This document shows, piece after piece, positions 1,999 to 20,388 of a stretch of DNA of 22,166 nucleotides. The notes beneath the pieces were generated by a model. That model was not told the origin of the DNA. It ran no database searches and saw only the letters and a list, made by a program, of their open reading frames with translations. The stretch comes from a virus. Within the stretch, counting starts at the first letter, position 1. Each line of letters opens with the position of its first letter. Both the position numbers and the translations under genes were made by a program. The stretch lies in UHGV virus genome UHGV-0117806, one strand, 5' to 3'.

Positions 1999-3054
1999 CT
2001 ATTTGCGAGCCTTTGCCTTGCGCAGCTCTTCGAGAATCGCTAGTTCTTCCTTGCTCAACATGACCATTTCCCCGTCTTTTTCTTCAGGGGCAACATCGAT
2101 AATGTCCTCCGGATCATCACCTGGCAAAATATCTTCTGGCTCTTCAGGCGTAGCCATAGATGGCGGCAGTGCCGAACGTAACTTCGGCCGTCTATAGTGG
2201 ATGACGAAGTAGACCGAGCTGCCGCGTTTCACTTCAGTGTAATCGAGATAGCCGATCTCTCGCAGCTGCTCCATCGCCTTCCTGACTGTCGCATTCTGGG
2301 TAATGGTGCGGCTGGTTAAGTTAAGTCTGGCGCGTAAGCGAGCCAATGAGATTGGCGCCGGGTCTGGTGGCAAACTTTCAATGAAGGTGTAGAGCGCCTG
2401 CGCGGATTCTTTTCTGGAGAGTTCGTTGATGGCCCGAAGTTGCAAAAGCACCTTTTTGTCGAACTGGTAAAGTTCGAAAATCTTAGGATCGGCCTTCAGT
2501 TCGACCGTGTCATTCTTGGTACTGTACTTTGCCGTCTGCACAAGGTGCGTAACGTAATACTCTTCAGAGCCTTTGCTGCGGAATGAGATGGTGTTTGTGG
2601 CGATACGACTTAGAGAGCTGTCCAGGCGCTTACGTAACTTCGCGGACGATCTGGCTGTTGGTATGCCACAAAGTCTGACGAACTCGACGAACGGCAACGT
2701 GACGGTGTCACCAACAACCTTGTGCTTGGCGAACGCGTGGATGATGCCCACCCATGTTTTGAAATCGTTATCCATATCAAGACGAAGACCAGCAATCCTT
2801 ATATCCTCGTACCCTTCGGCTTTGGCCAGAGACAGCTGTTTGAGTTCAGCGGAGGCGTCCATAGAGACCATTTGCCCCTTTCTACCCCTGGATGTCGATT
2901 TCAGCGTCGGAACGAAGAGACCAAGACGCATCAGAGCAACAGGCTGAACTGTGTTGTTGGTGTTAGGAACTAACGTAACAACTTCGCCGGTCTTTTTGTC
3001 TGTTTCGGAAAATGCTTCGCTTATCGCAATGTTTTTATTGTCGTTTACGCTCAT
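1999..3054 (-). CDS. repA: iteron-binding replication initiator RepA (RepFIB / phage P1 RepA family)
   Basis: 351-aa ORF with blocks recognisable from RepFIB/P1 RepA ([58 protein letters not shown]); flanked on both sides by iterons. Confidence 0.92.
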
Positions 3055-3097
3055 TCCAAATGTCTCTTTTTATTCGACGGCTTGGGTGCCTTTACTG

Positions 3098-3217
3098 ATT
3101 ACAGTGGATAGTAGCACCCATCACAGTGGTTATCCTACCGCCTACAGCGGTTTTTCTACTCTCCATAGTGGTTGATTTACTCTCTATAGTGGTTGTTATT
3201 CTCACTATAGTGGATAT
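3098..3217. repeat. iteron set 1 upstream of repA (6 copies, TACAGTGG-type orientation)
   Basis: ttACAGTGGATA 3100, tcACAGTGGTTA 3121, CTACAGCGG 3143, CTCCATAGTGG 3160, CTCTATAGTGG 3181, CTCACTATAGTGGATA 3201. Confidence 0.8.
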
Positions 3218-3254
3218 CGATAACCTCTAAAGCCATGTGGCACAACGGTTTGCA

Positions 3255-3335
3255 GGGGCCGGGGATCTCTTTGGGTCTTTGTGGTTCTCTTTGGTTCTAA
3301 CAGGGATCTGAATTACTGGATCGGGCCTGTGTATA
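3255..3335. other. candidate origin module 1 (GGGGATCTCT...TGGATCGGGCCTGTG; 3 GATC sites)
   Basis: GATC at 3264, 3305, 3319 in an AT-rich gene-free stretch between two iteron sets; diverged duplicate of 3636-3712. Confidence 0.45.
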
Positions 3336-3495
3336 AAAATCAGATAATTACAAAATCAGGCATCACTCCCCTTCTGGGGATAATGTGTGATCGAAATAAA
3401 CACGCCGCAACGCAAAATTTACAATATTTCCAAGAATATCAGCCATCTGCCGCAGAAAAACAGGCTCGGAGTTATCCAGTTAAAACATTGTCTCC

Positions 3496-3600
3496 TACTC
3501 ACTACAGTGGATACCGACTACTCTCCAGAGAGGTTGTTTTGCTCTTCATAGCGGTTATTATGCTCTCTACAGTGGTTATTTTGCTCCCTATAGTGGATAG
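3496..3600. repeat. iteron set 2 upstream of repA (5 copies)
   Basis: CTCACTACAGTGGATA 3498, CTCTCCAGAGAGG 3521, CTCTTCATAGCGG 3543, CTCTCTACAGTGG 3563, CTCCCTATAGTGGATAG 3583. Confidence 0.8.
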
Positions 3601-4837: not shown

Positions 4838-5268
4838 ATGACATTGCCATACGGGGTAATATCAGATCCCCATTATCATCGTTGGGATGCTTTTGCGACA
4901 ACCCGCCCTACTCCAAAATCACCCCCTGGATAGACGCAGCCATTCGCGAGCAGGCGCGTGGAGTGACGACGGTCATGCTGATACCACAATCCCTCGATAC
5001 GCAGTGGTACGAGCGTGCGGCTGAATGCGCCAACGAAACCGTCATCTTGTCTGGCGGCCGCGTGGCGTTCGTTGAGCCGGATGTTGAACTTGGGCTGGTG
5101 GAGGTGAACATCAACCCTGGTGGCAGCATGTTGCTTATCTTCCGTGGCTACTGTCAGGAAGCTGGGCACACCATCAGCAAGATACCGCTGGCGGTGATGA
5201 AAAAGCTGGGTGGTTATGATCCTGCCAATGTTGTCAGGAAGAAGAGACCACGTAAAAAGGCAGCGTAA
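4838..5268 (+). pseudogene. phage-type N6-adenine DNA methyltransferase (small Dam family), apparently frameshifted/N-terminally truncated
   Basis: Good start (AAGGAA 4825-4830, ATG 4838) opens frame 2 and stops after about 31 codons. The DNPPY catalytic motif and the rest of the domain (…DNPPYSKITPWIDAAIRE…GGRVAFVEPD…) are in frame 1 (track ORF 4882..5268, TTG start, no SD). Confidence 0.5.
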
Positions 5269-7779: not shown

Positions 7780-8739
7780 TCACTCCGGCGCATCCAGCCA
7801 ATTATTAATGGCGTCTATTATTAAGTGTATATCTTCATGGTGATACAGATAAACGTCCAGTTTTTTGGCTGCTTGTCTGGCGTGAGGGGTAAACTCGCTG
7901 TTGCTGACTACTATTGCGAGGGAGCAATCGTAGAACTGTTTCGCGGAAAATGCTTCCTGAATAGCTTTGTTGCCTACTTTAGACTGGTAGTGTTTGCACT
8001 GAACAGCCATTCGAACTTCTCTATAGGTTACAAGGATATCCAGACCGTGATCGCCGCTGCCCTTAGTTACTTGGGTGTCGGATCCATACTTCATAAACTC
8101 CCCAGCGACAAAATGCTCATATTCGTGCCCGGTCAGTAGCGAAGTGTACTCAGGTAATTCAGGTTCTGGTGTATTGTCTACCACCGTCATAATGTGATTT
8201 ATTGCGCAGCGATCAAATTGTTCAGGCAACTGGAATTTAAAGTAAACTGGCCGCCCCCAGGCATTCTTGTCCTCCGACTCTGCCAACCAAAGGTTGTTGA
8301 GCCGGCCTGTGTTCTCTTCGATCCAATCGTAAACTTTCTCTTTTACTACCTTGTCATAAAAGTAGTCTACTTCATCAAACCACTTGTCAAAGTTCCAGAC
8401 CCCGTATTCATCCTGTGTTGTGAGTGTTTTTTCTTTTCTTTTCAAAGTGGTGAGATGCATTTCATAGAACTGAGGTAAAACTTTTATGAGTAGGTATGAA
8501 GTGAAGGCGCTTTGAATAAGCTTCTCTTTGGCTGACTTATAGTAAAAATCGTTACGATCGAACGCGCCGTTTTGCGTGATGTAGCTTCTAACTTCCATAT
8601 TTCGAAAAATGATATTGCGTGTTTTTTCCCATGCTTCATGTAGATCATTTTCAGCAACGAAGCTCATGACTTTCTGATAATGAGACTCCAAGCCCTCCCG
8701 GGCCTTAGTTTCTTCCGTTTTGAAAAGATTACCAAACAT
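7780..8739 (-). CDS. Mrr-like PD-(D/E)xK restriction-endonuclease-fold protein with unrecognised ~200-aa N-terminal domain
   Basis: C-terminal ~110 aa match the Mrr_cat pattern: GHEYEHFVAGEF…GSGDHGLDILV…VQCKHY…AIVVSNSEFTPHARQAA. N-terminal domain has no motif I recognise. Convergent with 7046-7744. Confidence 0.85.
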   Translation of the reverse strand: MFGNLFKTEETKAREGLESHYQKVMSFVAENDLHEAWEKTRNIIFRNMEVRSYITQNGAFDRNDFYYKSAKEKLIQSAFTSYLLIKVLPQFYEMHLTTLKRKEKTLTTQDEYGVWNFDKWFDEVDYFYDKVVKEKVYDWIEENTGRLNNLWLAESEDKNAWGRPVYFKFQLPEQFDRCAINHIMTVVDNTPEPELPEYTSLLTGHEYEHFVAGEFMKYGSDTQVTKGSGDHGLDILVTYREVRMAVQCKHYQSKVGNKAIQEAFSAKQFYDCSLAIVVSNSEFTPHARQAAKKLDVYLYHHEDIHLIIDAINNWLDAPE

Positions 8740-8912: not shown

Positions 8913-8930
8913 GAAAACAACTTGTTTAAA
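8913..8930 (+). promoter_or_regulatory. palindromic operator-like motif (AAAACAA-C-TTGTTTAAA) 18 nt upstream of ATG 8948
   Basis: Member of the recurring AAAACAA-N(1-3)-TTGTTT family (see findings). Confidence 0.5.
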
Positions 8931-8947
8931 AGAATAAGGAAGAGCGC

Positions 8948-9526
8948 ATGTGTGAAAAATGCAAAAAAACTAATGCCAAAGTTGAAAGCGTGATTAAAAA
9001 AGTTGGTGCGGCCGAACTGGTTGAGATCATGGGTCTTGTGGTTGGTCACGAAGACGACGCCTCCCCTATTGACCGCCTTTTCAGCGTTCTCAAGTTCTCA
9101 AGCATGATTGATGATCCGATTGAAATTGTGATGCTGGCGCGTCATTTCGGCGAAGCGTATCTGGAAGAGAAAGAACGCGCCGACAAACTTAAGGCAACTC
9201 TGGAAATGGTAAGCAAGCCGAAGTGCTCACCGGATTCAGTCAAGGCAGATGAAACCAACGCCAGCAAAGATCGTGAAATCGCCGGGCTGAAGTCTTCTCT
9301 GGCGATGTTGCTGGCCGCTTTCAAACTGATGTCTTCCCAGGCTGGGTTCAAAATGCCTGAGCTGAACAGCGACGATCCGATGGCCCTTCGCCAGCTGTTG
9401 GGGGCAATGGCCGACCAGCTTGACGACACCAAGAGCCGTCTTGAAGACATGATGCGCGAGCTGACCCATCGCCACGACCTGAACAAACAGCCGCAGCCGC
9501 AAAAGATGCAGCCTTTACATCATTAA
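8948..9526 (+). CDS. hypothetical protein (192 aa)
   Basis: AAGGAAG then ATG 8948; preceded by the palindrome motif; followed by hairpin GGGGC-aaa-GCCCC (9534-9546). Confidence 0.7.
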   Translation: MCEKCKKTNAKVESVIKKVGAAELVEIMGLVVGHEDDASPIDRLFSVLKFSSMIDDPIEIVMLARHFGEAYLEEKERADKLKATLEMVSKPKCSPDSVKADETNASKDREIAGLKSSLAMLLAAFKLMSSQAGFKMPELNSDDPMALRQLLGAMADQLDDTKSRLEDMMRELTHRHDLNKQPQPQKMQPLHH

Positions 9527-9551
9527 TATATATGGGGCAAAGCCCCCTACT

Positions 9552-9971
9552 CTACTTTGCGGCGTCTAACAATAAGCCGCAATTTTCGCTCATGTATGCC
9601 GCAGTTGCCGGATTGCCTCTGTCATTATTCGAATTGTTCATTTCAGGGTGAGCGTCCCAGGCCACTGATTCCTGAGATGATAGATAGACGGCAAAGTCGA
9701 CGATTTCATCATCTCCGGTTTTAACGTTGCCAAGCAATTCATTTGCCTTTCTCCAGTGCTTCAGCGCGAGAATTCTGAACTGTTTTGCATTTTCAGCAGG
9801 CACTGCACTGGATTTGTCTGTGTAGATATTCGATATGTCGGCATAAAGAGCGCATTTAACATAGCTGGTTGCCCTGCCGGTCTCTTTAAAACCTTGCTCT
9901 GTGTTGTTGGCGTAGACATTCACAGCAAAAGCGCTGGCAATTCCCAGCAATATAATTTTCTTCATCATCAT
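9552..9971 (-). CDS. secreted protein with signal peptide (139 aa)
   Basis: N-terminus MMMKKIILLGIASAFAVNVYA is signal-peptide-like; no SD seen and exact start among three ATGs is uncertain. Confidence 0.55.
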   Translation of the reverse strand: MMMKKIILLGIASAFAVNVYANNTEQGFKETGRATSYVKCALYADISNIYTDKSSAVPAENAKQFRILALKHWRKANELLGNVKTGDDEIVDFAVYLSSQESVAWDAHPEMNNSNNDRGNPATAAYMSENCGLLLDAAK

Positions 9972-10096
9972 TACTCAATAAGGAGGCGACAAATATCTTA
10001 CGTGTAGTTGTCAGTTGAGTATTAAGCAAACTCAATAAACTTATAAGTATCTCCCTGTGCAGCTTGTGAATCCTTATTTATTACCTACTCAATTTT

Positions 10097-10130
10097 GAAA
10101 TAATAACACCAACAAAAAAACAATTTGTTT
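10097..10130 (+). promoter_or_regulatory. conserved promoter-operator module (TGaAATAAT extended -10-like box + AAACAATTTGTTT palindrome 10118-10130)
   Basis: gaaATAATAACACCAACAAaaAAACAATTTGTTT, 12 nt upstream of ATG 10143. Confidence 0.55.
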
Positions 10131-10142
10131 AATGGTGCAATC

Positions 10143-11828
10143 ATGAATACAGCCCTTTCCATCATTGACGCTATCACTCCAAACACTGATATCGACTACC
10201 GGCAGGAAATGAACGTTATCCACGAAATTGTGGCCGAGTGCGAGAAAGAGATCGCATTCATGCATCAGGTTCACGACTTCGTTTATGGCGACGAACGCCA
10301 CAGCATGATTAACCGCCTGCTGCGACTCAACCACCGGCCGGATGACGAGCGCACACGCTTTAACAGAGCCTGGTTGGACAAAGTCGACCTGGAATGGGTG
10401 AAACAGAACATCTGGGCTGAATACTGGAAGAAGGTCACGGATATGACCAACGTTCTGCTGATCATGCCAGCATCCCGCCGCGACGAGTGGCGTGAACAGT
10501 TTATCGAGGGCAAGCAGGAAACGATCAAGACTGACAGAACTGGCTATCAAATGAAGGTTAAAGAGTTCGTTGGTGTACCTGAGTTCAAAGCAGAAACGGT
10601 CATACCAACGATGCTTAATTTGCTGAATGACAGGCACAAATATCTCTCTGAGCGCGTGTATGGCTTGTTTAAGGCGTTGAGTCCTGCTCACAAGACCAAT
10701 AAGACGAACGGCTTCAGCGAGCGTCTGATCATCGCCGACTGCATTTCCGATTTCTGGCGGGACAGCGTCAGCGTTAACTACCGGAAAGAGGATTACATAG
10801 ACGACCTGCGCGTCATGTTGCATTTCTTTGCACACAAAGAATTTATCACCATCAACCGCACGGCCGAGATGCTGTCAGCTGCGTATCGAGCAAATGACTG
10901 CCAGACCGGCGACTGGATGAATGTCGACGGAAACCTGATGCGTGTGAAGATGTTTAAGAACGGCAACGTTCACTTTGAAATACATCCTGACGTAGCCTGG
11001 AAGCTGAATGAGGTGCTGGCTTACAGTATGCCTGCAGCAATCCCGGCGCCATGCCGTACTGCACCCAAAACACGGGCACCAAAAGAGTTCGGGTTAATCC
11101 AGAAGACGATCTCCGAGCCGGTTCGTACCGCGCTGCGCAACGGGCGATTCAGCAAAGATAAAGGCGTCTGGTACTTCTCTGATTCCAACCTCCAGAAGTC
11201 GCAGGTGGAAGAGCTTGAGCGCACACTGAACTTCATTGGCGGCGTGCAGGAGAAAAGGCACTGGCAGTTCCCGTATGAGATCGGCCATACGCTCAATACG
11301 ATTGTGGCCACCGGCTTAATACCGGATACAAAATCACACCAGTTCTACCCTACCCCGCGTTTGATAGCGGAGTACGTTGCCAGAGCCATCGAGCTGAAGC
11401 AAGGTGAGAAGCTGCTGGAGCCTGAAGCCGGGCGCGGAGATCTGCTGGCCTGCATCGACGCCAATCCGGAAGACGTTACCTGCATAGAAGTCGCACCTCT
11501 CTTCGCTGATATCCTGCTTGGCAAGGGGTACACAAATACGGTCTGCTGCGACTTCATGAAGTGGTCTGAGGTCAACGCAGGTTATCAGTTCGACAAAATC
11601 GTTATGAACCCGTCCTACTCTCTTGACCGTCACAGAGAGCATACGCTGGCCGCGCTGGAGCATCTTAAAGTCGGCGGGCGACTGGTGGCTGTATTGCCGG
11701 GTGATGCGCCAGTTCTGAACTGGATGTCGCTGGATAATTACGTTTATGCCAAAGGGAAGTCGTTTACTGACGAGTTTGAAGACACCGGAATCACTGTCAG
11801 CGTATACGTTTTCAAACGTGTAAAATGA
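10143..11828 (+). CDS. putative orphan DNA amino-methyltransferase with ~380-aa unrecognised N-terminal region (561 aa)
   Basis: C-terminal motifs in gamma-class order: FYPTP (motif X), LEPEAGRGDLL (motif I, SAM-binding), VCCDF, IVMNPSYS (motif IV variant NPSY). ATG 10143 in frame with track ORF 10125..11828. Confidence 0.8.
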   Translation: MNTALSIIDAITPNTDIDYRQEMNVIHEIVAECEKEIAFMHQVHDFVYGDERHSMINRLLRLNHRPDDERTRFNRAWLDKVDLEWVKQNIWAEYWKKVTDMTNVLLIMPASRRDEWREQFIEGKQETIKTDRTGYQMKVKEFVGVPEFKAETVIPTMLNLLNDRHKYLSERVYGLFKALSPAHKTNKTNGFSERLIIADCISDFWRDSVSVNYRKEDYIDDLRVMLHFFAHKEFITINRTAEMLSAAYRANDCQTGDWMNVDGNLMRVKMFKNGNVHFEIHPDVAWKLNEVLAYSMPAAIPAPCRTAPKTRAPKEFGLIQKTISEPVRTALRNGRFSKDKGVWYFSDSNLQKSQVEELERTLNFIGGVQEKRHWQFPYEIGHTLNTIVATGLIPDTKSHQFYPTPRLIAEYVARAIELKQGEKLLEPEAGRGDLLACIDANPEDVTCIEVAPLFADILLGKGYTNTVCCDFMKWSEVNAGYQFDKIVMNPSYSLDRHREHTLAALEHLKVGGRLVAVLPGDAPVLNWMSLDNYVYAKGKSFTDEFEDTGITVSVYVFKRVK

Positions 11829-11886
11829 TAGGTAAATACTTACCTAATTTATGTAAGAATAGAGCCACTTTATCAGAGGTAAACAC

Positions 11887-12576
11887 ATGAGCGAAAAATC
11901 GAGAATTACATTCGCCAGCGTTGATCAGGCGAAGCTGCCATTTAATTTAGTGCTACAGGGGAATGCAGGCGCGCCTGCCGGAACCATCAAAATCGACAAG
12001 GAGCTTGTGACGTTCGAAGGTAACTTTGATGAATCGGCGCAGGTTTTTATCGACCATCTGGCACGCCGTTGGAGCCAGCAGTGGAGAGACCTTGAGAAAT
12101 GCGCCAATGAGTTTGACCGGTTCATGGACGCAATGGACACAGCAAAAGAGGCTCTGGCTGCCGGCACTCCGTTAGATTTGGAGTCTCTGTTTAAAGGTGA
12201 AATGGCCTCTGCGATGTTCGCAACCATGTTTGCCGGTGAGTTTGTTCGTAGCGGGGCCAGAAACTACCTGGAGCTGGAGTACGACGTTCCTGAAATGGGT
12301 GAGTTTACCGTCACCATTCAACGCAAAGAAGGTAAGACTCCTGGCGAACGTATCGCTGAACTTGAGGCCGTTGTGGATCAGCGTAACGGCGAGTGCGTCC
12401 GTTTGATTAATGAACGTGATGCGCTGCGCGAAGAGCAGCTAAACAAAGGCTCGAACACACGCGCGGCCGCAGACATCTACTTCCAGTTGGTTGAGGAATG
12501 CCAGATCCCGCCAGGTGGCTCTTTGGTCGAGTTCGTTCGCGAATTGCAGGAGAAAGCAGAGAGGTGCGCGGCATGA
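11887..12576 (+). CDS. hypothetical protein (229 aa)
   Basis: ATG 11887, 58 nt after the methyltransferase stop; intergenic near-palindrome AGGTAAATACTTACCT (11830-11845). Confidence 0.7.
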   Translation: MSEKSRITFASVDQAKLPFNLVLQGNAGAPAGTIKIDKELVTFEGNFDESAQVFIDHLARRWSQQWRDLEKCANEFDRFMDAMDTAKEALAAGTPLDLESLFKGEMASAMFATMFAGEFVRSGARNYLELEYDVPEMGEFTVTIQRKEGKTPGERIAELEAVVDQRNGECVRLINERDALREEQLNKGSNTRAAADIYFQLVEECQIPPGGSLVEFVRELQEKAERCAA

Positions 12577-12812
12577 ATGATCTGCTTGTCGAGCGAGTCT
12601 CCGCTTTTGTTAAGTCCCCGCTGAATAATCCCCTCACCCGCGGTGAGCAGATGGAGCTGGCAAGGTGGTTTCTGCGTATCCATGAGCAGATGGAAGTTTT
12701 TAAACAGTTGCCGGATCTGCCCATTACAGACGGCCAAATTCAGTGTGCCACTTCAGTACGGTCGACGATGACAACGACGCAAACCTGCTTTTCGTCAAAT
12801 CCGAAATCATAA
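12573..12812 (+). CDS. hypothetical small protein (79 aa)
   Basis: ATG 12573 overlaps stop of 11887..12576 (ATGA). C-terminal ~20 residues look low-complexity, so a frameshift or shorter product is possible. Confidence 0.45.
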   Translation: MNDLLVERVSAFVKSPLNNPLTRGEQMELARWFLRIHEQMEVFKQLPDLPITDGQIQCATSVRSTMTTTQTCFSSNPKS

Positions 12813-12858
12813 AGTTGCCCAGGGAGAGAGAGAAATCGACGCAGAGCAGGCCCGCAAT

Positions 12859-13074
12859 ATGTGGGACGAGGCAGAAAACGCTGATGACGTAAAAGAAAGT
12901 TGCTGCTGTTTCGGTGTCGGTAACGAACTGCTGAGTCTGTTTGGTGACGATCCGTGGTATGCCGGTTGGCCAACAGTGCCAAACCCCAGATACCAATACC
13001 TAGAACGTATCATGAACGCGGTACGTGATGGGCTGAAAGAGCTTCACAATCAGATGAGAGAAGCAATTGGTTAA
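12859..13074 (+). CDS. hypothetical small protein (71 aa)
   Basis: ATG 12859 with weak SD; frame is open upstream to 12772 without an alternative start. Confidence 0.4.
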   Translation: MWDEAENADDVKESCCCFGVGNELLSLFGDDPWYAGWPTVPNPRYQYLERIMNAVRDGLKELHNQMREAIG

Positions 13075-13112
13075 GTGCTATAGTCAGGCGCTTTTATATT
13101 TATGGAGTGAAT

Positions 13113-13811
13113 ATGAAAAATATCCTACTGGCATCATTGTTGGTGGCATCGCCGGCTGTATTTGCAGCCAGCTTTGACTGCCAAAAGGCTTCGGCAGAAA
13201 TCGAACACAAAATCTGCGATAACGAACGCCTGTCAAAATTAGACGAACAACTTAGCTCTACCTATTCCAACGCACTCAAAGCAAACCCGGGGGACGCAGA
13301 CGCCTTAAAGACGGTTCAGCGTCAATGGGTAAGTATGCGTGGAAAACTCACTGGTGATAAGGCTCTGGAGTTGGCTTATCTAATCCAAATTAATGGCCTC
13401 AAGAGTTTGGATGGTTCGGCCAGCACTGCGGTGGTCAATGAGACACCAAAGCCTGTGCAGAAACAGCCTGAAGTTCAGGAAAAGACAAGCAAGGCAGACA
13501 CAAAGCAGGCTGAGAGCGGTAAAAAGCTAACTCTGGAGTCATTCCGAGCTAAGTATATTGAAGTTGACGGTGAATACTACAGCACGACATCCCTTCCCAG
13601 AGGGAGTTCGTTCTTGTTCACCTGCGCAAGTCGTATCGCAGATGACCAGGTGAATATTTGGAAGAAGGTGGCAGCCAAAGAGGGCAAGATCGATCTCTTC
13701 TTTGAACTTGAGAATCGAATACATACCGCAATGCTGAATGCCAATTTTCAGAAGCTGAATAGTGATTTAACTAAAACAGGCATTTGCGATCTGATTACCG
13801 CTGTTCCGTAA
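13113..13811 (+). CDS. secreted DUF1311 / LprI-like protein (232 aa)
   Basis: GGAG 13104-13107 then ATG 13113; signal peptide MKNILLASLLVASPAVFA; DUF1311-type pattern C-x2-A-x4-E-x2-IC…L-x2-LD…QRQWV. Confidence 0.7.
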   Translation: MKNILLASLLVASPAVFAASFDCQKASAEIEHKICDNERLSKLDEQLSSTYSNALKANPGDADALKTVQRQWVSMRGKLTGDKALELAYLIQINGLKSLDGSASTAVVNETPKPVQKQPEVQEKTSKADTKQAESGKKLTLESFRAKYIEVDGEYYSTTSLPRGSSFLFTCASRIADDQVNIWKKVAAKEGKIDLFFELENRIHTAMLNANFQKLNSDLTKTGICDLITAVP

Positions 13812-13818
13812 GCCAGAT

Positions 13819-13840
13819 AAGGCCACTAGTTGTGGCCTTA
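13819..13840. terminator. bidirectional hairpin AAGGCCAC-tagtt-GTGGCCTT
   Basis: Sits between convergent genes 13113..13811 (+) and 13867..14070 (-); immediately followed by palindrome AAACAATTTGTTT (13840-13852). Confidence 0.55.
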
Positions 13841-13866
13841 AACAATTTGTTTTATAGATGGTGAAA

Positions 13867-14070
13867 TTAATAGAACCCCAGGCGAACCAAATCCATTGGG
13901 CAGAATAGACCTTCCACACCTTCGATAGACACGCAGTCAGAGCGGCGTAATTGTTCTTCTGATTTGCCTTCTCCGCAGATTTCCTTGATGACTCCCGTTG
14001 CACCATTCGTTGCCACCATCACTCGGCTGCCGGTAGTGATAGCGTTACGGTTGCGATCATAGGTCTTCAT
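13867..14070 (-). CDS. hypothetical small protein (67 aa)
   Basis: Strong SD on minus strand (AAGGAGG, 5 nt before ATG at 14070). Confidence 0.65.
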
Positions 14071-14154
14071 CGTTTCCTCCTTTCACATGGGTCAAATCAG
14101 GTTTCAAAAATTGCCGTTTTCCATGTAGGTGCGATTTGCAAAATCTCAAGTGCC

Positions 14155-14169
14155 AAAACAAATTGTTTT
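14155..14169. promoter_or_regulatory. perfect 15-bp palindrome AAAACAAATTGTTTT in divergent intergenic region
   Basis: Same motif family as upstream of the small-gene array; about 85 nt from minus-strand ATG 14070 and 89 nt from plus-strand ATG 14258. Confidence 0.5.
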
Positions 14170-14223
14170 CACCATCTTGTTATTCAATTAACCCGTAAAG
14201 TTGACCAGTACCGTAATAAATAA

Positions 14224-14243
14224 TACTGTTTATATGTACAGTA
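14224..14243 (+). promoter_or_regulatory. LexA (SOS) box overlapping a sigma70-like promoter
   Basis: TACTGTTTATATGTACAGTA matches CTGT-N8-ACAG. TTGACC (14201-14206) + 17-bp spacer + TACTGT places the box over the -10; 15 nt upstream of ATG 14258. Confidence 0.65.
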
Positions 14244-14257
14244 TTGCGAGGCGAGCA

Positions 14258-14524
14258 ATGGGCAGCAAGAATTCTAAATATGTGATCGTCTATAGGGGCG
14301 AAGCACTCAAGCACCTAATACCCGGACAGTTCGTTTTCTTCCAACGTGAAAAAGAATACGGTGGGGGGTTCTGGCTTGGTAAAACGCATGAGGATGGGTT
14401 CGAATTTGTGCTGGAGCAACCCACTTCACTAAGTTACGGGCTTGCGTATCTGATCAGATTGTCGAGTGTCGAAGCCAGGTATATGGAGTTTGTTGATGAC
14501 ATAGACGACTTCAAACTCACCTAG
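14258..14524 (+). CDS. hypothetical SOS-box-associated small protein (88 aa)
   Basis: GAGG 14247-14250 then ATG 14258; track ORF 14201..14524 begins at a TTG that is the putative -35. Confidence 0.6.
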   Translation: MGSKNSKYVIVYRGEALKHLIPGQFVFFQREKEYGGGFWLGKTHEDGFEFVLEQPTSLSYGLAYLIRLSSVEARYMEFVDDIDDFKLT

Positions 14525-14564
14525 TCATCCCTTAAACATTTTGTTTTCTACCTTTTGTTATTTG

Positions 14565-14597
14565 AGATAATAACACAAATAAGAAAACAAATTGTTT
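14565..14597 (+). promoter_or_regulatory. conserved promoter-operator module (TGaGATAAT + AAAACAAATTGTTT)
   Basis: gaGATAATAACACAAATAAGAAAACAAATTGTTT then AAGGAG and ATG 14610; a second degenerate palindrome AAACATTTTGTTT lies at 14534-14546. Confidence 0.55.
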
Positions 14598-14609
14598 AAG
14601 GAGTTGATC

Positions 14610-14846
14610 ATGTTCGGAACCGCAAAAGACATCATCGAAAAGCTGGAGAACTACCCAGAAGATGAGCCGCTGCTGATGGTGATGTGGCACAAGGAAGATG
14701 TAGGTGAAGTGCGACCAGACCTGACTGACGAACAGTGCGTTCAGGTTTTGCGAAAAATCAAAGAGTGCCATGACACCAGCGTCGGCGTGAATTGGGATGT
14801 CATTTCTGACACGGCCAACATACTGTTTCCAAAGGAGAAGGCATGA
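14610..14846 (+). CDS. hypothetical small acidic protein (78 aa)
   Basis: AAGGAG 14598-14603 then ATG 14610; stop overlaps next start. Confidence 0.7.
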   Translation: MFGTAKDIIEKLENYPEDEPLLMVMWHKEDVGEVRPDLTDEQCVQVLRKIKECHDTSVGVNWDVISDTANILFPKEKA

Positions 14847-15163
14847 TGCTGAAAATCACCGAATCGTATAAGACGGCGGTGATCAGCACCGCCCACGTAA
14901 CGGCAGCGGATTCAGAACGGCTACCCATTGCCTGCTTCGACCCACTTACTGATCGCGGGTTGAATTGGGTACACGGTACACAGTACGGCTGGATTGTTCG
15001 TGCTGGAATGCGAGGGAATGACTGGAAGGAAGAACTGCGTGAGTACGGCATTTCCCAAGAGGCGATCTCCAACATACAGACCATACTGGATGACGGCTTT
15101 GACGTGGTTCACTTCGATTGCGACGCCGAGCTGGTGGATGGGCTACCTGCATGGGAATGGTGA
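14843..15163 (+). CDS. hypothetical acidic protein (106 aa), coupled
   Basis: AAAGGAGAAGGC then ATG 14843 overlapping upstream stop (ATGA). Confidence 0.7.
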   Translation: MMLKITESYKTAVISTAHVTAADSERLPIACFDPLTDRGLNWVHGTQYGWIVRAGMRGNDWKEELREYGISQEAISNIQTILDDGFDVVHFDCDAELVDGLPAWEW

Positions 15164-15239
15164 TCGCCCACTCGTTGAGTAATCATGTCATATAAGCGAA
15201 GAAAATTGGTAACATAGTACCGCTTTTTAATCTGATGGA

Positions 15240-15809
15240 ATGGATGTGATGGAAACCCAGAACCAACAAACAAAACCTCTGAATAATGCTTATGCGTGGC
15301 TTCTAGCTTTACTGCCTCTCTTCTTTGGAGCACCGCCAGATGAGTATTTGAATTATGCAATAGTGATAGGTGGAGTCGCTGGACTCGGCTTTCTGGTGGC
15401 TGACAGAATGGCATTGTCTGATGCAGGGTATGAACCACCGGCCATCCTGTGGGGAGTATTTCTCCTTCCGGTCTATCTCTGGAAACGTGCCACCGTTACA
15501 AAAGGCAGTCGACTTCCTTTTATCGTAATCGTCGCGTTGCTTGCTGGTAACATCTTCATCGGTATCACACACCAGGAAGAGGTTGCTCTTGAAGAAGCGG
15601 CTTGTCCTCTCGTAACGACCATTCTGAAAGAGAATAACGGAACCACAGCGCCGAAATGTATGAAGGTGACAATTCAGGACAAGGTGACGGACAAGTTCTA
15701 TAAAGCGACGGCTACGCTGGATAACGGCAACGACATAAACGTTACTCTGGAACTGACCGGCGAAAGAAACTTTTATGTGCGCGTTCCGGATGCCTATCTG
15801 AACAACTAA
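15240..15809 (+). CDS. hypothetical membrane protein (189 aa; start 15240 or 15249)
   Basis: Two or three hydrophobic segments near the N-terminus (AYAWLLALLPLFFGA, AIVIGGVAGLGFLVA, ILWGVFLLPVYLW) then a soluble C-terminal domain. Confidence 0.6.
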   Translation: MDVMETQNQQTKPLNNAYAWLLALLPLFFGAPPDEYLNYAIVIGGVAGLGFLVADRMALSDAGYEPPAILWGVFLLPVYLWKRATVTKGSRLPFIVIVALLAGNIFIGITHQEEVALEEAACPLVTTILKENNGTTAPKCMKVTIQDKVTDKFYKATATLDNGNDINVTLELTGERNFYVRVPDAYLNN

Positions 15810-16883
15810 CGGCTGCAGCTCGTTGATATTGGCGGTCACAAATTGAGGATTTCTATAAGAGTCCGTTGATCGCCACTTTCCCCACCACCCTACCCCACTC
15901 AATCCCAGGCGTGACAAGGCATTTAAGCCAATTACACCCATAAGAAAACAAATAAATAACACATCAACGTAAAGTCAACGCTTTCCCCTGATTTGGTCTA
16001 AAAAGTTGATGTTTTCGCACGCCATCTCTTATACCCAAATCCAGCGTACCAGAATCCATCTCCCTGCGACCAAAACGTCAAAAACGACTCGTGATACCAC
16101 CCAAAAACAGACACGCTCAGAAGCGCTCCCGTTGCGTTATATTGGACATCTAAACAAGTTGTTTTCAGACACAAGAAAACAAGCTAACCACACCCACAGG
16201 AAACCCAGAGACGCCATTACCCACATTCCCAAAAACAACCAACCTCTTTATGGCAGGCTACTGAAAAGACCCACCTCTTCTTCCCAGGCTACCGGACAAC
16301 CAACCTAACTTTCACAGGCAACTCGAAACATTCATACATGCGATACCCACTATACGCCATTCCCCAAACAGCGAATAAACACCAGAACCACTGAAACTCT
16401 AACGAAGCCTGTTACCGCAAGGACTCCCTCAATCACCAAAGACACGAAACAGAACATTCGCGGGGAAACGCCATTACTCAATACACGAATAACCACAAAA
16501 GCCTTTCACGCTCTCAAGGTAAACAACTCAAATACAATAACGAAAGGAATCGCCCACCTGCCATTACTCCATACACAGAGAAGAACAATCACCAAAACAA
16601 CGAGAACAACCCTGACGAAAACACAGAGATTAATCACCTCAAGAAGAACGAAACCACATACGCCGGTAGAGAGTACAACCCACCCATTTCACCCACAGGA
16701 ATAGTCGCCGTATTGAGCGTTATCAGAGAGAAGGTTTATACCCACATAAGAGAGAAAATTCGTGGGAGGTATAAGTGGGAAGGGAAGGAGGGGTATCGCC
16801 ACTTTCTTCGTATAAATTCAAGCCATAGTTTTCGTCCCCCGTAACGTCCCTATCCACCCCTTCGGTCAGCCTTCGGGCCATCC

Positions 16884-17063
16884 AGGGAAAAGGCCATGTC
16901 CCTTTTCAGGAACGGGAACGTCGCCGCAGGGAAAAGGCTGGAGGTTTTTCAGGGAAACGGTGGGAATCCCGCTATACGAACCGGGAAAAGGCTGGCTGCC
17001 GGTCGGGAAACGGGTACATCCCGGTACAGAGTGAGAGACGACTGCGGGAGCAGTGCGGGAAAT
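16884..17063. repeat. array of about 7 direct GGGAAA(A/C)GG-type repeats
   Basis: CAGGGAAAAGG 16884, CAGGAACGGGA 16908, CAGGGAAAAGG 16927, CAGGGAAACGG 16950, CGGGAAAAGGC 16982, CGGGAAACGGG 17004, CGGGAAATC 17055; spacing 23-32 bp. Track ORF 16896..17339 here is non-protein-like. Confidence 0.6.
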
Positions 17064-17330
17064 CTTCGGGAGTGCGCCTTACTCTTCACTCGCCTGAAAA
17101 TCGCGGGGGAGTGTCATTCCCTCTCGTGCAGCTACTGGACTCCAGTCTGCCAGACCATCATCGGATCTCAAGCGATTTCAGTAGGTTTTCGGGGAGAAGG
17201 ATATTCTGCCCACCAGCCCCGCGGCGCGCGTAGAGCAGAATATCGTAAATACTGGCTCCCGTGTCGTTCCCGGATATTCACTGCCCAGCCTGGCTTTCCC
17301 GACATAAAATCCTTTTTCGCCTTTGTCTTA

Positions 17331-17368
17331 TTGCGATAATAACACCAACAAGTAAACAACATATTTAG
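17331..17368 (+). promoter_or_regulatory. conserved promoter module (TGcGATAAT + degenerate palindrome)
   Basis: TTGCGATAATAACACCAACAAGTAAACAACATATTTAG upstream of ATG 17399. Confidence 0.5.
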
Positions 17369-17398
17369 ACGTTATAGAAACGAAGTGAGGATGAAGAG

Positions 17399-17617
17399 AT
17401 GATTAAGATGCCTGTGACGGTTGAGGTGTGGGGCGTGGATTCCCTGGCTGAGTGTCTGGATGCAGTGGGGCCGGAGTTGTACCGCAAGTTGTGGTCGTTC
17501 GTCCCGGCAGAAGGGGAATCGCCCAAAGGGAAGGATATCTGGCACCTGCTTAGTGAAGATGAAAAGCGGGAGCTGGTGGACGCGGTACACAGCGAGTTCC
17601 CGGACGACGAAGATTAA
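17399..17617 (+). CDS. hypothetical small strongly acidic protein (72 aa)
   Basis: GTGAGG then ATG 17399; about 18 Asp/Glu versus 7 Lys/Arg by my count, ending …EFPDDED. Confidence 0.7.
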   Translation: MIKMPVTVEVWGVDSLAECLDAVGPELYRKLWSFVPAEGESPKGKDIWHLLSEDEKRELVDAVHSEFPDDED

Positions 17618-17688
17618 GAGTGAGACCACCAGCACGGTGGCTTTTGTCGCTATTAACCTCCGGGGCAGCGCAGCACCGTAACGATATA

Positions 17689-17746
17689 CTTTGTGGCCGT
17701 TTTCTTACTGGTATTGTTTACGCAATTCAGAAAACAACATGTTTAA
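17689..17746 (+). promoter_or_regulatory. conserved promoter-operator module, class II (TTGTGG…TGgTATTGT + AACATGTT palindrome)
   Basis: CTTTGTGGCCGTTTTCTTACTGGTATTGTTTACGCAATTCAGAAAACAACATGTTTAA; near-identical to the 18180-18236 module. Confidence 0.55.
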
Positions 17747-17756
17747 GGATTGCTTT

Positions 17757-18086
17757 ATGTTTGCAAATATCGACATCAACCAAATCAAGAAAATGACTCA
17801 AAAAGAGTTTGACCAGTTTTATGAGTTAGAAGGTTGGTCTTCCACGCTGATCAATTCGCGCTGGGTGCTTGAGCTGATGACTCGTGATGATGCTCCTGCT
17901 TTGATTATTTGCGACATGGGTGAAGATGCTGACTTTATGGATATGAGCGAATTTTGTGTGGACACATACAACCGCAGCCAGAAGTACTACTTCACATGCG
18001 ATAGCGAGAATGACGTGATTTCTAAGCTCTATCTTCACCTTGTCCAGCATTGGGACGTGCAGGAATTCCTTGAGTTATTCGCGTAA
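17757..18086 (+). CDS. hypothetical acidic protein (109 aa)
   Basis: AAGGA 17745-17749 then ATG 17757; followed by hairpin AAGCCAGC-accgcct-GCTGGCTT (18096-18118). Confidence 0.7.
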   Translation: MFANIDINQIKKMTQKEFDQFYELEGWSSTLINSRWVLELMTRDDAPALIICDMGEDADFMDMSEFCVDTYNRSQKYYFTCDSENDVISKLYLHLVQHWDVQEFLELFA

Positions 18087-18179
18087 GCCCAACCAAAGCC
18101 AGCACCGCCTGCTGGCTTAACTTCTCTGTAGCCGCAGGGAAGAACCACCTTTAGATAATTCATGTGCCTGAGCAATATG

Positions 18180-18236
18180 CTTTGTAGCCGTTTTTACACT
18201 GGTATTATTTACGCCATTGAGAAAACAATTTGTTTA
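18180..18236 (+). promoter_or_regulatory. conserved promoter-operator module, class II (TTGTAG…TGgTATTAT + AAACAATTTGTTT)
   Basis: CTTTGTAGCCGTTTTTACACTGGTATTATTTACGCCATTGAGAAAACAATTTGTTTA; palindrome 18223-18235, 12 nt before ATG 18247. Confidence 0.55.
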
Positions 18237-18246
18237 CGGAGTGGTG

Positions 18247-18558
18247 ATGAATACTTCATTGGTGCTGGGTCTTGCTGAAGGCCAGGAGAGAAAAGAAAAA
18301 CCAACCTTAATGGGGCATCTCACATTGCTGGATATCGTAGCGAATGGGACTTCTATCCGTCTGTTTCGTGAAAAAGCCATTACCTTCGACGCGGGCAATT
18401 TTACGCGCTATGTGATGGTAGTTCGTCGCCAGCGTGGAAGAGGGTGGATGTCGGTCCAGAAAATGTGGCCAGAGGACCAGCTTGAACTGGCGCTGATGGA
18501 AGCCAACCGTGTCGCCCAACAAGAGATCCAACGAGCGTCTGTTCAGGCGGTAGCTTAA
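18247..18558 (+). CDS. hypothetical basic protein (103 aa)
   Basis: GGAG then ATG 18247; Arg-rich (VMVVRRQRGRGW), unlike its acidic neighbours. Confidence 0.65.
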   Translation: MNTSLVLGLAEGQERKEKPTLMGHLTLLDIVANGTSIRLFREKAITFDAGNFTRYVMVVRRQRGRGWMSVQKMWPEDQLELALMEANRVAQQEIQRASVQAVA

Positions 18559-18593
18559 ACATGTGCAAGCAGTAGTTAGTCGAATGTACGACA

Positions 18594-18620
18594 GCCCCGC
18601 CAATCCTTCGGGGCTTTTTT
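18594..18620 (+). terminator. Rho-independent terminator
   Basis: GCCCCG-ccaatcctt-CGGGGC followed by TTTTTT. Confidence 0.75.
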
Positions 18621-18679
18621 GTATTGTAAGTACTTACTTATGATAATAAAATTAAAAATTAAACACTAAGGAGAGTGAA

Positions 18680-19075
18680 ATGACCGTTAAACGCGAAAAT
18701 CTGACCCTGGATATGTATTATGCATCAGAGACGGAAAATGGAGACAAAGTTGCAAAAATTACAATTGTGCTACGCGATAATGCCTCCGGCGAAGAAGTTC
18801 ACACCAGTACCTTAACTCGCACCGGCGAGGCGACAAAGGGGAAATATTCGGTGCGTTACCAAAGCATCAGTAATGCTTCTGACCCTTTACTGATAAAACT
18901 GGAAACTCATTTCCGTGGCGCGGATCAGACGTTGTTTGAAAATTTGATGAAAAAGGTCGATACGGTTTATACATCGAGTTTAAATACCAATAGTACCTGG
19001 ATGGGACAACACGGTCTGCGAATAATCTCCGGCGAAAAGATCGACACCATTGTCCCTGAAAGCGTATTCGCTTAA
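18680..19075 (+). CDS. hypothetical protein (131 aa)
   Basis: AAGGAG then ATG 18680; preceded by TGTAAGTACTTACTTA (18625-18640) and a TTGTAA-17-TAAAAT promoter-like pair; followed by terminator 19088-19110. Confidence 0.7.
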   Translation: MTVKRENLTLDMYYASETENGDKVAKITIVLRDNASGEEVHTSTLTRTGEATKGKYSVRYQSISNASDPLLIKLETHFRGADQTLFENLMKKVDTVYTSSLNTNSTWMGQHGLRIISGEKIDTIVPESVFA

Positions 19076-19087
19076 TCCTCTTTGAAT

Positions 19088-19110
19088 GGCGCGTAAACCG
19101 CGCCATTTTC
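19088..19110 (+). terminator. Rho-independent terminator
   Basis: GGCGCG-taaac-CGCGCC followed by ATTTTC; then palindrome AACAATTTGTT (19122-19132). Confidence 0.65.
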
Positions 19111-19192
19111 TTATGCCCGATAACAATTTGTTTTCTGCCTTATCTGATTTGTGAAAATGATTTCACTGAAGCAACTTAATAAGGAAACCATC

Positions 19193-19567
19193 ATGGGACT
19201 TGATATCTATATCGAGACGCAGCCTAAAAACGATCTGAATAACGAGGCATCCAGAAAGCAGGTTGCTTACTTCCGTAAGTTCAATGCGCTCGTTGGGTGG
19301 ATGGAGCGCAACGTAGGTGAAGTCGAAAATTGTGAGCTTTTAGAATTAACGATGAATGACATTTGTTTTCTGAAGACTCATTTGATGCACATAAACGAAA
19401 GTAATTGCGAAGAGTACTTGCCTACCCAGGAAGGTTTTTTCTTCGGCAGTCAGGAGTACGATGAAGGTTACTGGCATGACGTGGGGGAGTTGAAAGAGAT
19501 TGTGGAAGATCTGATTAAGAACCACGACTTTCACAATAATAGACTGACCTTCTGCGCCTGGTGGTAA
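19193..19567 (+). CDS. hypothetical acidic protein (124 aa)
   Basis: AAGGA 19181-19185 then ATG 19193. Confidence 0.7.
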   Translation: MGLDIYIETQPKNDLNNEASRKQVAYFRKFNALVGWMERNVGEVENCELLELTMNDICFLKTHLMHINESNCEEYLPTQEGFFFGSQEYDEGYWHDVGELKEIVEDLIKNHDFHNNRLTFCAWW

Positions 19568-19569
19568 AT

Positions 19570-19713
19570 ATGGGCGATTTCAAGAAACGCCTGAAGGAGA
19601 GAGCCGAGATGGTCAGAAAGCGAAACGCCTCTTCTGTCATAAGATACGCAAGGCAGTTTAGTCGCAACAACAAATCAGTTGAGGAAAAGATCCTTAGCGT
19701 AATCGGGCGATAA
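19570..19713 (+). CDS. possible small basic peptide (47 aa; alternative start 19609 gives 34 aa)
   Basis: Below track cutoff. ATG 19570 two nt after stop of 19193..19567; internal ATG 19609 has AAGGAG 9 nt upstream; ends just before hairpin 19719-19742. Confidence 0.3.
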   Translation: MGDFKKRLKERAEMVRKRNASSVIRYARQFSRNNKSVEEKILSVIGR

Positions 19714-19718
19714 TTATT

Positions 19719-19742
19719 AAGGCCACCAGCATTGGTGGTCTT
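19719..19742 (+). terminator. hairpin terminator AAGGCCACCAG-catt-GGTGGTCTT followed by AAATGAC
   Basis: Near-identical to hairpin 20190-20213 and related to 13819-13840. Confidence 0.6.
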
Positions 19743-19850
19743 AAATGACTTTTAATAACCGAAGGTTAGTTTGAAACCTGGCTATCAACTTCCAGAACCT
19801 TTCTTGTGTATTCAGCCTGTATTAACTTCTTTTATGCCTTATCTACACTG

Positions 19851-19883
19851 CGATAATTACACCAACAAGAAAACAATATGTTT
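19851..19883 (+). promoter_or_regulatory. conserved promoter-operator module (TGcGATAAT + AAACAATATGTTT)
   Basis: CGATAATTACACCAACAAGAAAACAATATGTTTACG, then GAGG and ATG 19897. Confidence 0.55.
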
Positions 19884-19896
19884 ACGCAGTGAGGAT

Positions 19897-20184
19897 ATGC
19901 TCATGACTGATTTCACCATTACCCCTAAAGCACAAAATGTATTCCTTGAATCATGGCTGGACTTGCCGGAAACAGAACAGCAAGAAATGGATCATGTGGA
20001 ATATGACGAGCAGGTAAGCACGCGATTCTTCCACTTTGAGGGCTGCGTTTACGACATTGCCGACTTCATGCGAGATGACCGCTTCCCTGAATGGCACGCA
20101 AGCTATCCACTAAACGCCTTCGCCATGCTGATGATCCGTGTGGATGATTCAGGGGATACCATCGACATCGGTCTGCTCCACTAA
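19897..20184 (+). CDS. hypothetical acidic protein (95 aa; start 19897 or 19903)
   Basis: GAGG 19891-19894 then ATG 19897. Confidence 0.65.
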   Translation: MLMTDFTITPKAQNVFLESWLDLPETEQQEMDHVEYDEQVSTRFFHFEGCVYDIADFMRDDRFPEWHASYPLNAFAMLMIRVDDSGDTIDIGLLH

Positions 20185-20189
20185 AGAGT

Positions 20190-20213
20190 AAGGCCACCAA
20201 TGCTGGTGGCCTT
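20190..20213 (+). terminator. hairpin terminator AAGGCCACCA-atgc-TGGTGGCCTT followed by AAATGAC
   Basis: Perfect 10-bp stem directly after stop of 19897..20184. Confidence 0.65.
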
Positions 20214-20334
20214 AAATGACCATCCTGTTTCCCGCAGGCTAAAAACACCAACCTCTTACCTCCAGGCAACCGACAAACCCACCTGTTCCCGTCCGGCTAC
20301 CGCAACTTTCCACTTTGACGCCTTATTCGTACAA

Positions 20335-20367: not shown

Positions 20368-20388
20368 ATTTACGATAAGGAATTAATC

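Follow-up and report, generated by a model that had tools for sequence, protein, structure and literature searches.

What does the 561-residue protein do that is encoded in the middle of UHGV virus genome UHGV-0117806, and is it as novel as it looks? The window analyzed here is the whole stretch of 22,166 nucleotides (nt), and the target stretch is the 2,978 bp at positions 10,097 to 13,074, where an earlier note, made from the letters alone, described an orphan methyltransferase with a non-canonical motif IV, a large unassigned N-terminal region, and close-packed unknown genes downstream. We propose with moderate confidence that the protein is an orphan DNA methyltransferase acting on adenine N6, of the gamma class and the DUF4942 family, which is accessory to an SSU5-type phage-plasmid and protects the DNA of that element. 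Judged by sequence comparison, it is an ordinary member of a known and annotated, although uncharacterized, family, and the novelty claimed for its fusion and its motif fails. The parts of the gene are as follows.

10143..11828, + strand: DUF4942-methyltransferase coding sequence, 561 amino acids (aa), homologue of SSU5 gp095 (from open reading frame [ORF] calling, the Prokaryotic Genome Annotation Pipeline [PGAP], Pfam, and homologues)
10143..10388, + strand: variable helical N-terminal segment, aa 1-82, the least conserved part, with helices at 20-62 in the AlphaFold2 (AF2) model
10389..11078, + strand: DUF4942 core, aa 83-312 (Pfam and family conservation)
11079..11327, + strand: Pro/Lys-rich linker and small alpha/beta subdomain, aa 313-395 (AF2 secondary structure)
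11328..11825, + strand: gamma-class N6-adenine methyltransferase domain, aa 396-561, with motifs X, I, III, and IV
11343-11357, + strand: motif X, FYPTP, aa 401-405
11415-11447, + strand: motif I, LEPEAGRGDLL, aa 425-435
11541-11555, + strand: motif III, VCCDF, aa 467-471
11607..11627, + strand: motif IV, NPSYSLD, in which NPSY is aa 489-492
11613-11615 and 11625-11627, + strand: codon TCC of P491S and codon GAC of G495D, both derived

The catalytic assignment rests on the C-terminal ~166 residues, where the gamma-class motifs FYPTP, LEPEAGRGDLL, VCCDF, and NPSY are found in the order that had been claimed. The full gamma order X-I-II-III-IV is present (FYPTP, 401-405; EPEAGRG, 426-432; E449; D470-F471; NPSY, 489-492), and the motifs align with those of M.TaqI, which is also the nearest solved protein by sequence (9e-4), followed by EcoR124 HsdM (7.5e-3). 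The commonest weak Pfam match is N6_Mtase, in 17 of 23 family members, with MTS in 15 of the 23 and RrnaAD in 3, and PADLOC matches the domain to mad2 (9e-14) and MTase_II (5e-8); with M.TaqI and HsdM, the N6_Mtase and PADLOC matches support the C-terminal amino-methyltransferase domain that had been predicted. An AF2 model built from the alignment of the 23 family sequences (31-92% identity; mean predicted local distance difference test [pLDDT] 82.6) has a Rossmann-type fold dependent on S-adenosylmethionine (AdoMet), closest to N6-adenine enzymes. In the model the last strands of this fold, aa 551-559, end the protein, and there is no C-terminal target-recognition domain of the M.TaqI type; none of the eight neighboring genes scanned is an HsdS-like specificity gene. 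The fold alone cannot tell DNA from RNA enzymes, and it is the sequence matches and the genomic company that favor DNA. The catalytic domain (aa ~400-520) is also 31-39% identical to a domain inside giant phage proteins, and a 3,787-aa PLxRFG protein of phage H66 embeds the same methyltransferase subtype; the note in the H66 record, incomplete as it appears, says that the protein was verified by mass spectrometry, and related giant phage proteins carry virion or internal-virion annotations.

The gene itself is real, as had been claimed, running from the ATG at 10143 to the stop at 11828, and it is supported by purifying selection and hundreds of homologues. The ORF listing begins at a TTG codon (10125..11828), and the ATG at 10143, which yields the 561-aa product, is the start used by PGAP in a plasmid 99.9% identical over the target stretch. 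The ratio of non-synonymous to synonymous substitution rates (dN/dS) is 0.05-0.12 in most pairs (Nei-Gojobori), with one pair, the window versus E. fergusonii, at 0.22; the gene is under purifying selection, and fast or relaxed evolution was rejected on these values. The non-synonymous excess in the window's methyltransferase domain amounts to 4-6 changes only, too few to use. An identical protein is present on 30 public contigs, so the substitutions P491S, G495D, and their like are not sequencing errors.

The counterpart in Salmonella phage SSU5 is SSU5_095 (gp095), annotated "DNA methyltransferase" and 97.5% identical to the window protein (tblastn), which in turn matches PHROG 6263 over its whole length (E=7.5e-295). 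The target stretch is matched by 529 records; it is 99.9% identical to three large Escherichia coli plasmids, and many non-mobilizable IncFIB plasmids of ~110 kb from Escherichia, Enterobacter, and Citrobacter match it at 95-98% identity. SSU5 aligns with half of the window at 90%, and together with the plasmid matches this marks the window as part of an SSU5-type phage-plasmid. The family with DUF4942 and methyltransferase domain extends to more than 600 clusters in phage-plasmids, IncHI plasmids, and temperate phages. Full-length homologues of ~30% identity occur in roughly 1,500 conjugative plasmids (tblastn), including IncHI2 plasmids and an IncHI-related MOBH plasmid typed IncFIA, where the DUF4942 gene lies near a Dam gene, and in temperate phages of Aeromonas, Vibrio, Pseudomonas, and Marinomonas; in Pseudomonas phage MR15 the homologue stands in the early region amid other methyltransferases.

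The N-terminal region is not the unassigned sequence that it had seemed. Pfam places DUF4942 (PF13708) at aa 140-295 (E=1.3e-20; 74.3 bits against a gathering cut-off of 25), and the whole N-terminal region is conserved in the family. Searching 1.84 billion representatives with aa 1-392 alone (phmmer) returned 614 clusters; 131 of the 140 representatives newly retrieved in this way reach 480 aa or more, and NPP[FYW] is present in 127 of these 131. Because nearly all long representatives found by the N terminus carry methyltransferase motifs, the fusion is the family norm, with an N-terminal DUF4942 region followed by a methyltransferase domain of ~170 aa in proteins of about 510-590 aa. The suggestion that this fusion was not obviously described does not hold, since it is the norm for DUF4942/PHROG 6263, is annotated in RefSeq and in SSU5, and is present in ~1,500 conjugative plasmids and several temperate phages. 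A ParB/Srx-like fold, also suggested for the N terminus, finds no support in domain, profile, or structure searches: Pfam, NCBIfam, and PADLOC give nothing there besides DUF4942, and PDB sequence and profile searches give nothing below E=0.3 and no solved structural relative.

Conservation is uneven along this region. In a 130-sequence alignment aa 1-82 have a mean top-residue frequency of 0.26, whereas conservation of at least 95% is reached at 25 of 230 positions in the DUF4942 core and at 19 of 166 in the catalytic domain. The core also has the lowest dN/dS in the protein (0.02-0.04) and holds a set of near-invariant polar residues (T156, S180, H183, T185, N186, D221, R223, D262, H277, and N289). 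Such conservation is unlike that of variable recognition domains and suggests one shared activity or the binding of a shared substrate; with DUF4942 no less conserved than the catalytic domain, a single shared or relaxed specificity, and not a range of sequence specificities, is probable for the family. Toward the catalytic domain the protein is basic (pI 9.8 for aa 301-325), and since PHROG 9133 (1259 aa) matches aa 332-560, the small alpha/beta subdomain travels with the methyltransferase domain.

The motif IV called non-canonical by the earlier note is indeed present at 489-492, but it is not a trait of the family. The canonical form is (N/D/S)-P-P-(Y/F/W), and the window protein has N-P-S-Y, retaining N489, P490, and Y492. 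Among 120 close clusters the motif is NPPY in 102, NPPF in 13, and NPSY in 2; the 131 distant long representatives have NPPF (108), NPPY (18), and NPPW (1), with NPSY in none of the 127 that bear the motif. The family motif is NPPF or NPPY, and NPSY is a rare, lineage-specific, derived P491S. Five changes (D333N, K372R, D477V, P491S, and G495D) set the window protein apart from all five relatives with which it was compared. G495D rests on the sole nucleotide difference between the gene and that of plasmid pLR-46_1, and an aspartate at 495 is also found in an otherwise canonical Buttiauxella homologue. We judge a serious catalytic defect from NPSY to be an appreciable but lesser prospect.

Whether the enzyme has a partner is bound up with the genes upstream, among which the following is the most relevant.

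7780..8739, minus strand: 319-aa protein with a C-terminal Mrr_cat nuclease domain (PF04471, E=2e-21)

No restriction endonuclease partner had been visible, and this gene, 1.4 kb upstream, shows that a nuclease is in fact nearby; no conserved partner exists, however, because the Mrr_cat gene is found in 7 plasmid records versus 529 that match the target stretch, and SSU5 and most relatives are without it. The nuclease, whose 200-aa N terminus has no Pfam match, also matches the PADLOC candidate defense models PDC-S02 and ZorD nuclease, and its gene takes the place of the Ant/Rha gene of SSU5 and relatives. Four of the seven Mrr_cat plasmids have the NPPY allele, and the nuclease is not linked to NPSY; the idea that NPSY is an escape from self-attack by the nearby Mrr-type nuclease was rejected for the same reason. 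By its distribution the Mrr_cat gene is a sporadic insert, not the partner of the methyltransferase, which with no conserved cognate nuclease beside it is an orphan. Another gene of this region, 9552..9971 on the minus strand, encodes a protein of 139 aa that matches PHROG 7437 and begins with a clear signal peptide (MMMKKIILLGIASAFAVNVYA). It is inserted between the SSU5_094 and SSU5_095 homologues, is not in SSU5 or several relatives (blastn), and looks like a moron-type insert.

The locus varies among relatives in another way, as illustrated by one Klebsiella record.

CP052264.1, 4001-8180: 71-aa stump and type I restriction-modification (R-M) system in a Klebsiella SSU5-like plasmid

In some Klebsiella SSU5-like plasmids the gene is cut to such a 71-aa stump, with a type I R-M system (HsdR, HsdS) at the site, and the locus is an exchange hotspot for defense and anti-defense genes. 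We also considered the first 62 residues as a swappable module common to other methyltransferases; this was rejected, since the matches are the 71-aa stumps that remain where the type I R-M cassette took the place of the gene.

Expression of the gene is best considered together with the module ahead of it and the genes behind it.

10093..10132, + strand: promoter/operator-like module common to at least eight other transcription units, with a promoter-like match at 10095-10124
11829..11846, + strand: palindrome TAGGTAAATACTTACCTA, directly after the stop codon, one of six GTAARTAYTTAC copies
11887..12576, + strand: 229-aa acidic protein, SSU5_096 homologue (PHROG 8364), from profile and SSU5 comparison
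12166-12184: weaker terminator-like site, inside the 229-aa gene
12573..12812, + strand: 79-aa ORF, truncated Eaa-like gene (SSU5_097), from PHROG 10451 and blastn versus SSU5
12859..13074, + strand: 71-aa ORF, C-terminal remnant of an SSU5_100 homologue (183 aa in SSU5), uncalled by PGAP in the closest plasmid
13073..13093, + strand: terminator-like hairpin with a T-rich tail, closing the gene string

The target gene does carry the promoter/operator-like module of the small-protein array, as had been proposed. At 10093-10132 a -10-like AATAAT with an upstream TG is followed by ACACCAAC and then by the palindrome AAAAACAATTTGTTT (10116-10130), which ends 12 nt 5' of the ATG at 10143. At least nine ORFs are preceded by the recurrent unit of ~40 nt, in which a -10-like GATAAT, with TG upstream of it, is followed by ACACCAAC-AAG, the palindrome AAAACAAnTTGTTT, and a Shine-Dalgarno sequence. 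Matches to the palindrome GAAAACAAnTTGTTT number 22 over the two strands of the window, versus 0.39 expected by chance, and the module sites look like a regulon under a putative repressor; we found no literature describing a GAAAACAAnTTGTTT regulon. Many small ORFs, in either orientation, have a GAAAACAAnTTGTTT palindrome 10-30 nt upstream, and examples of the ~12 sites in 8913-20370 are those at 8913, 10116, 13838, 14154, 14534, 14583, 16150, 17730, 18221, 19119, 19869, and 20354.

The second palindrome, GTAARTAYTTAC, has six matches in the window versus 0.13 expected, and may be a second operator/promoter class or a processing site; as RNA, TAGGTAAATACTTACCTA forms a weak hairpin with no U-tract. 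The copies lie at 199, 4704, 5705, 6900, 11832, and 18626, most of them at or just past the end of an ORF and before the next, and often with a TATAAT-like hexamer preceding. Because one copy comes right after the stop codon of the methyltransferase gene, the 229-aa gene could have its own control. The gap at 11828-11887 has no terminator-like site, and the two genes are probably cotranscribed; cotranscription across the whole of 10143-13074 is plausible from the layout of the string.

As for the downstream genes, the packing and the ATGA overlap of 11887..12576 with 12573..12812 are real (12573-12576), but to call all of them close-packed unknown genes is only partly right, since 12573..12812 and 12859..13074 flank a deletion junction. 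Relative to SSU5, 1.45 kb is lost between 12743 and 12755 (blastn), and 12573..12812 is therefore a truncated Eaa-like gene with a junction tail and 12859..13074 a remnant of SSU5_100. Of the 126-position profile of PHROG 10451, the match covers aa 1-58 only of the 79-aa ORF, and the last ~21 residues derive from the junction at 12743/12755. The profile of PHROG 3451 (287 aa) is matched twice, by aa 1-103 of the 229-aa protein and independently by the 71-aa ORF (profile positions 217-285); the two would thus be one protein in other phages, with modular shuffling here.

We propose that the C-terminal 166 residues would bind AdoMet and transfer a methyl group to a flipped-out adenine, and that the N-terminal 395 residues (DUF4942 core, basic linker, and alpha/beta subdomain) would supply substrate engagement, because the catalytic domain ends without a target-recognition domain. 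Expression, the timing of which we infer, would start from one of about a dozen shared promoter/operator-like modules, probably with the downstream 229-aa gene. The element's own DNA would be methylated, and host DNA incidentally, so that the restriction systems of a new host would then fail to cut; by analogy with known systems this anti-restriction role is plausible.

Several points weigh against this proposal. The gene is dispensable and its locus a variable accessory spot, because Klebsiella relatives have the stump with the type I R-M insertion; our literature search turned up nothing functional on DUF4942, which is mentioned in only four papers, or on the methyltransferases of SSU5/pHCM2, and no methylation data for the family; and the allele in the window is possibly weakened by P491S. 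Accordingly weighed, it is possible, although doubtful, that the methyltransferase of this copy is crippled by P491S, perhaps aided by G495D, and that the gene is kept for a methylation-independent function of DUF4942 or as a decaying neutral passenger. P491 is at least 95% conserved in the alignment of 130 homologues, NPSY is as rare as the counts above indicate (0 of 127 and 2 of 120), and two of the five lineage-specific changes fall within five residues in the catalytic loop, whereas N489 and Y492, both catalytic, are retained along with every AdoMet-binding motif, and D495 is shared with the otherwise canonical Buttiauxella protein. The element's second methyltransferase, a Dam-like ORF at 4882..5268, is 5'-truncated, a point in favor of this reading; but the exact protein on 30 contigs has no frameshift or stop, and the lineage-specific substitutions are too few for relaxed selection to show. 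That DUF4942 is the most constrained region also speaks for a function apart from methylation. There are, in addition, shorter DUF4942 proteins that lack a methyltransferase domain, one of them encoded by a Pragia lambdoid prophage, from which it follows that DUF4942 has a function of its own. A Pantoea plasmid carries a stand-alone DUF4942 copy with no methyltransferase neighbor. We also asked of the Pragia prophage whether its stand-alone DUF4942 lies beside a split methyltransferase gene, which was rejected, as there is no methyltransferase remnant and only a Dam gene 1.4 kb away. On a broader and in our view unlikely reading, DUF4942 is a conserved new-fold module and not a target-recognition domain. 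It would either engage DNA of a particular structure or in a particular process, or form a second catalytic center from near-invariant residues (S180-x2-H183-x-T185-N186, D221-x-R223, D262-G263, H277), and it would couple a sequence-relaxed adenine methyltransferase to entering or replicating element DNA. If so, the mechanism would be common to SSU5-type phage-plasmids, IncHI resistance plasmids, and temperate phages, and the methyltransferase-less DUF4942 proteins and the NPSY allele would be cases in which the DUF4942 activity alone is kept.

The nature of the substrate gives rise to a further alternative, in which the methyl group goes not to DNA but to RNA (adenine N6 of rRNA or tRNA) or to a protein amide, with DUF4942 recognizing that substrate. 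The Pfam matches to MTS (15 of 23 members) and RrnaAD (3) are compatible with this, as is a small catalytic domain without a target-recognition domain, which many RNA methyltransferases share; NPPY and NPPF are also found in RNA and protein amino-methyltransferases. We nevertheless regard it as improbable, since the best sequence matches are DNA enzymes, motif III has the form D-F-x-x-W and resembles that of M.TaqI, the genomic company is made up of further DNA methyltransferases and genes of DNA metabolism in the early regions of phages, and the same methyltransferase subtype is found in the giant phage proteins with virion or internal-virion annotations. Much less probable still is that the methyltransferase and the Mrr_cat nuclease form a restriction-modification system or another two-gene defense unit. 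Their spacing of 1.4 kb and the PDC-S02 and ZorD matches of the nuclease are set against its scarcity (7 versus 529 records) and its replacement of Ant/Rha, the two unrelated genes between the pair, the opposite strand of the nuclease, and its co-occurrence with both NPPY and NPSY alleles; Mrr-type catalytic domains are, moreover, typical of modification-dependent enzymes. An orphan DNA methyltransferase of the DUF4942 family thus remains the reading that we prefer.

Two further genes of the window deserve a place here.

1999..3054, minus strand: Rep3-type repA, with iterons on both sides
4882..5268, + strand: Dam-like methyltransferase ORF (PF05869), matching profile positions 64-153 only

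Similarity to SSU5 and the other listed SSU5-like phages begins only at 4899/4900, inside the Dam-like ORF, and because of this the ORF is taken to be 5'-truncated, at a recombination joint. To the left of it, dense iteron arrays flank repA at 1271-1662, 1690-1996, and 3084-3600, with the core ACTCACTACAGTGGATA, and a 41-nt tandem repeat (4.4 copies) lies within this region at 1321-1499; thousands of Klebsiella and Escherichia plasmids, but not SSU5, match the window in this left part. RNase H and DUF5983 genes are also encoded, and Rfam and tRNA scans of the window gave no matches. At 15960-16700 on the + strand, ~0.75 kb has no annotated coding sequence in a closely related plasmid and is extremely A/C-rich (GC skew -0.24; AT skew +0.31), with 30-nt direct repeats (16232-16328), a 24-nt tandem repeat (16573-16629), and operator-like modules ahead of it; the stretch may specify a non-coding RNA or serve as an origin-like element. 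Two 27-nt arms (19717-19743 and 20189-20215), 96% complementary and each itself a GC-rich hairpin, enclose a 137-aa ORF (19771..20184) and may be a pair of bidirectional terminators, or else mark where a small cassette was inserted.

The lesson of the window is that a known fusion architecture, a point mutation in an odd motif, and a downstream "gene array" that is partly deletion debris can together give the appearance of novelty. The family is nonetheless large and resides on medically important vehicles, namely the SSU5/pHCM2-type phage-plasmids and the IncHI1/IncHI2 resistance plasmids, including an mcr-9 plasmid. If it does shield incoming DNA from restriction, it would help to set the host range of the elements that carry it. 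Because it is as conserved as the catalytic domain and lacks any solved structural relative, the DUF4942 region merits structural and methylome work.

Among known systems the closest is PF13708/PHROG 6263 itself, as in SSU5 gp095, which has the same full-length architecture and the same gene neighbors. The window copy differs from gp095 by P491S and G495D in motif IV, and its surroundings differ from those in SSU5 by the 1.45-kb downstream deletion, a 0.5-kb upstream insert, and Mrr_cat instead of Ant. The likeness to M.TaqI includes the D-F-x-x-W of motif III; unlike M.TaqI, HsdM, M.BseCI, and CamA, the window protein has no C-terminal target-recognition domain, specificity subunit, or cognate nuclease, and its 395-residue N-terminal region stands in place of the target-recognition domain of M.TaqI-type enzymes. 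The best defense-library match to the catalytic domain is mad2, the MADS methyltransferase (PDLC04134, E=9e-14), but only that domain matches and no other MADS genes are among the eight neighboring genes scanned. The giant phage proteins such as the H66 PLxRFG protein share the catalytic domain type, but they have 1,200-3,900 residues and related ones are annotated as virion proteins, whereas the window protein has 561 residues and no sign of packaging. P1 DarB, which we take to be an analogous giant phage protein with a methyltransferase domain, was not among the tblastn matches of the window protein.

A possible candidate for the DUF4942 family is M.Sen2050ORF245P, a plasmid-borne type II gamma enzyme for which single-molecule real-time (SMRT) data gave no motif (PMC4393132); as with the IncHI DUF4942 genes, a Dam-type gene is found two ORFs away. 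A protective role has precedents in the orphan methyltransferases of plasmid leading regions and of phages (PMC7736820, PMC11541004, PMC3299994). Hia5, Hin1523, and Nme1821 are non-specific adenine methyltransferases of Mu-like prophages that shield DNA from many restriction enzymes (PMC3299994); like the predicted window enzyme they are phage-borne orphans with an atypical target-recognition region, although they are Dam-related and much smaller, with a DPPY motif and no DUF4942 (PMC3299994). M.EcoGIX and M.BceJIII are single-strand-specific, promiscuous methyltransferases of plasmid leading regions that protect the entering element from restriction (PMC7736820). The window element, unlike theirs, is a non-conjugative phage-plasmid and hence has no leading strand, and the likeness drawn here is one of role; with this in mind, a mobile-element orphan methyltransferase that would make N6-methyladenine and has an extra non-catalytic region, as M.EcoGIX and M.BceJIII do, serves as our working model.

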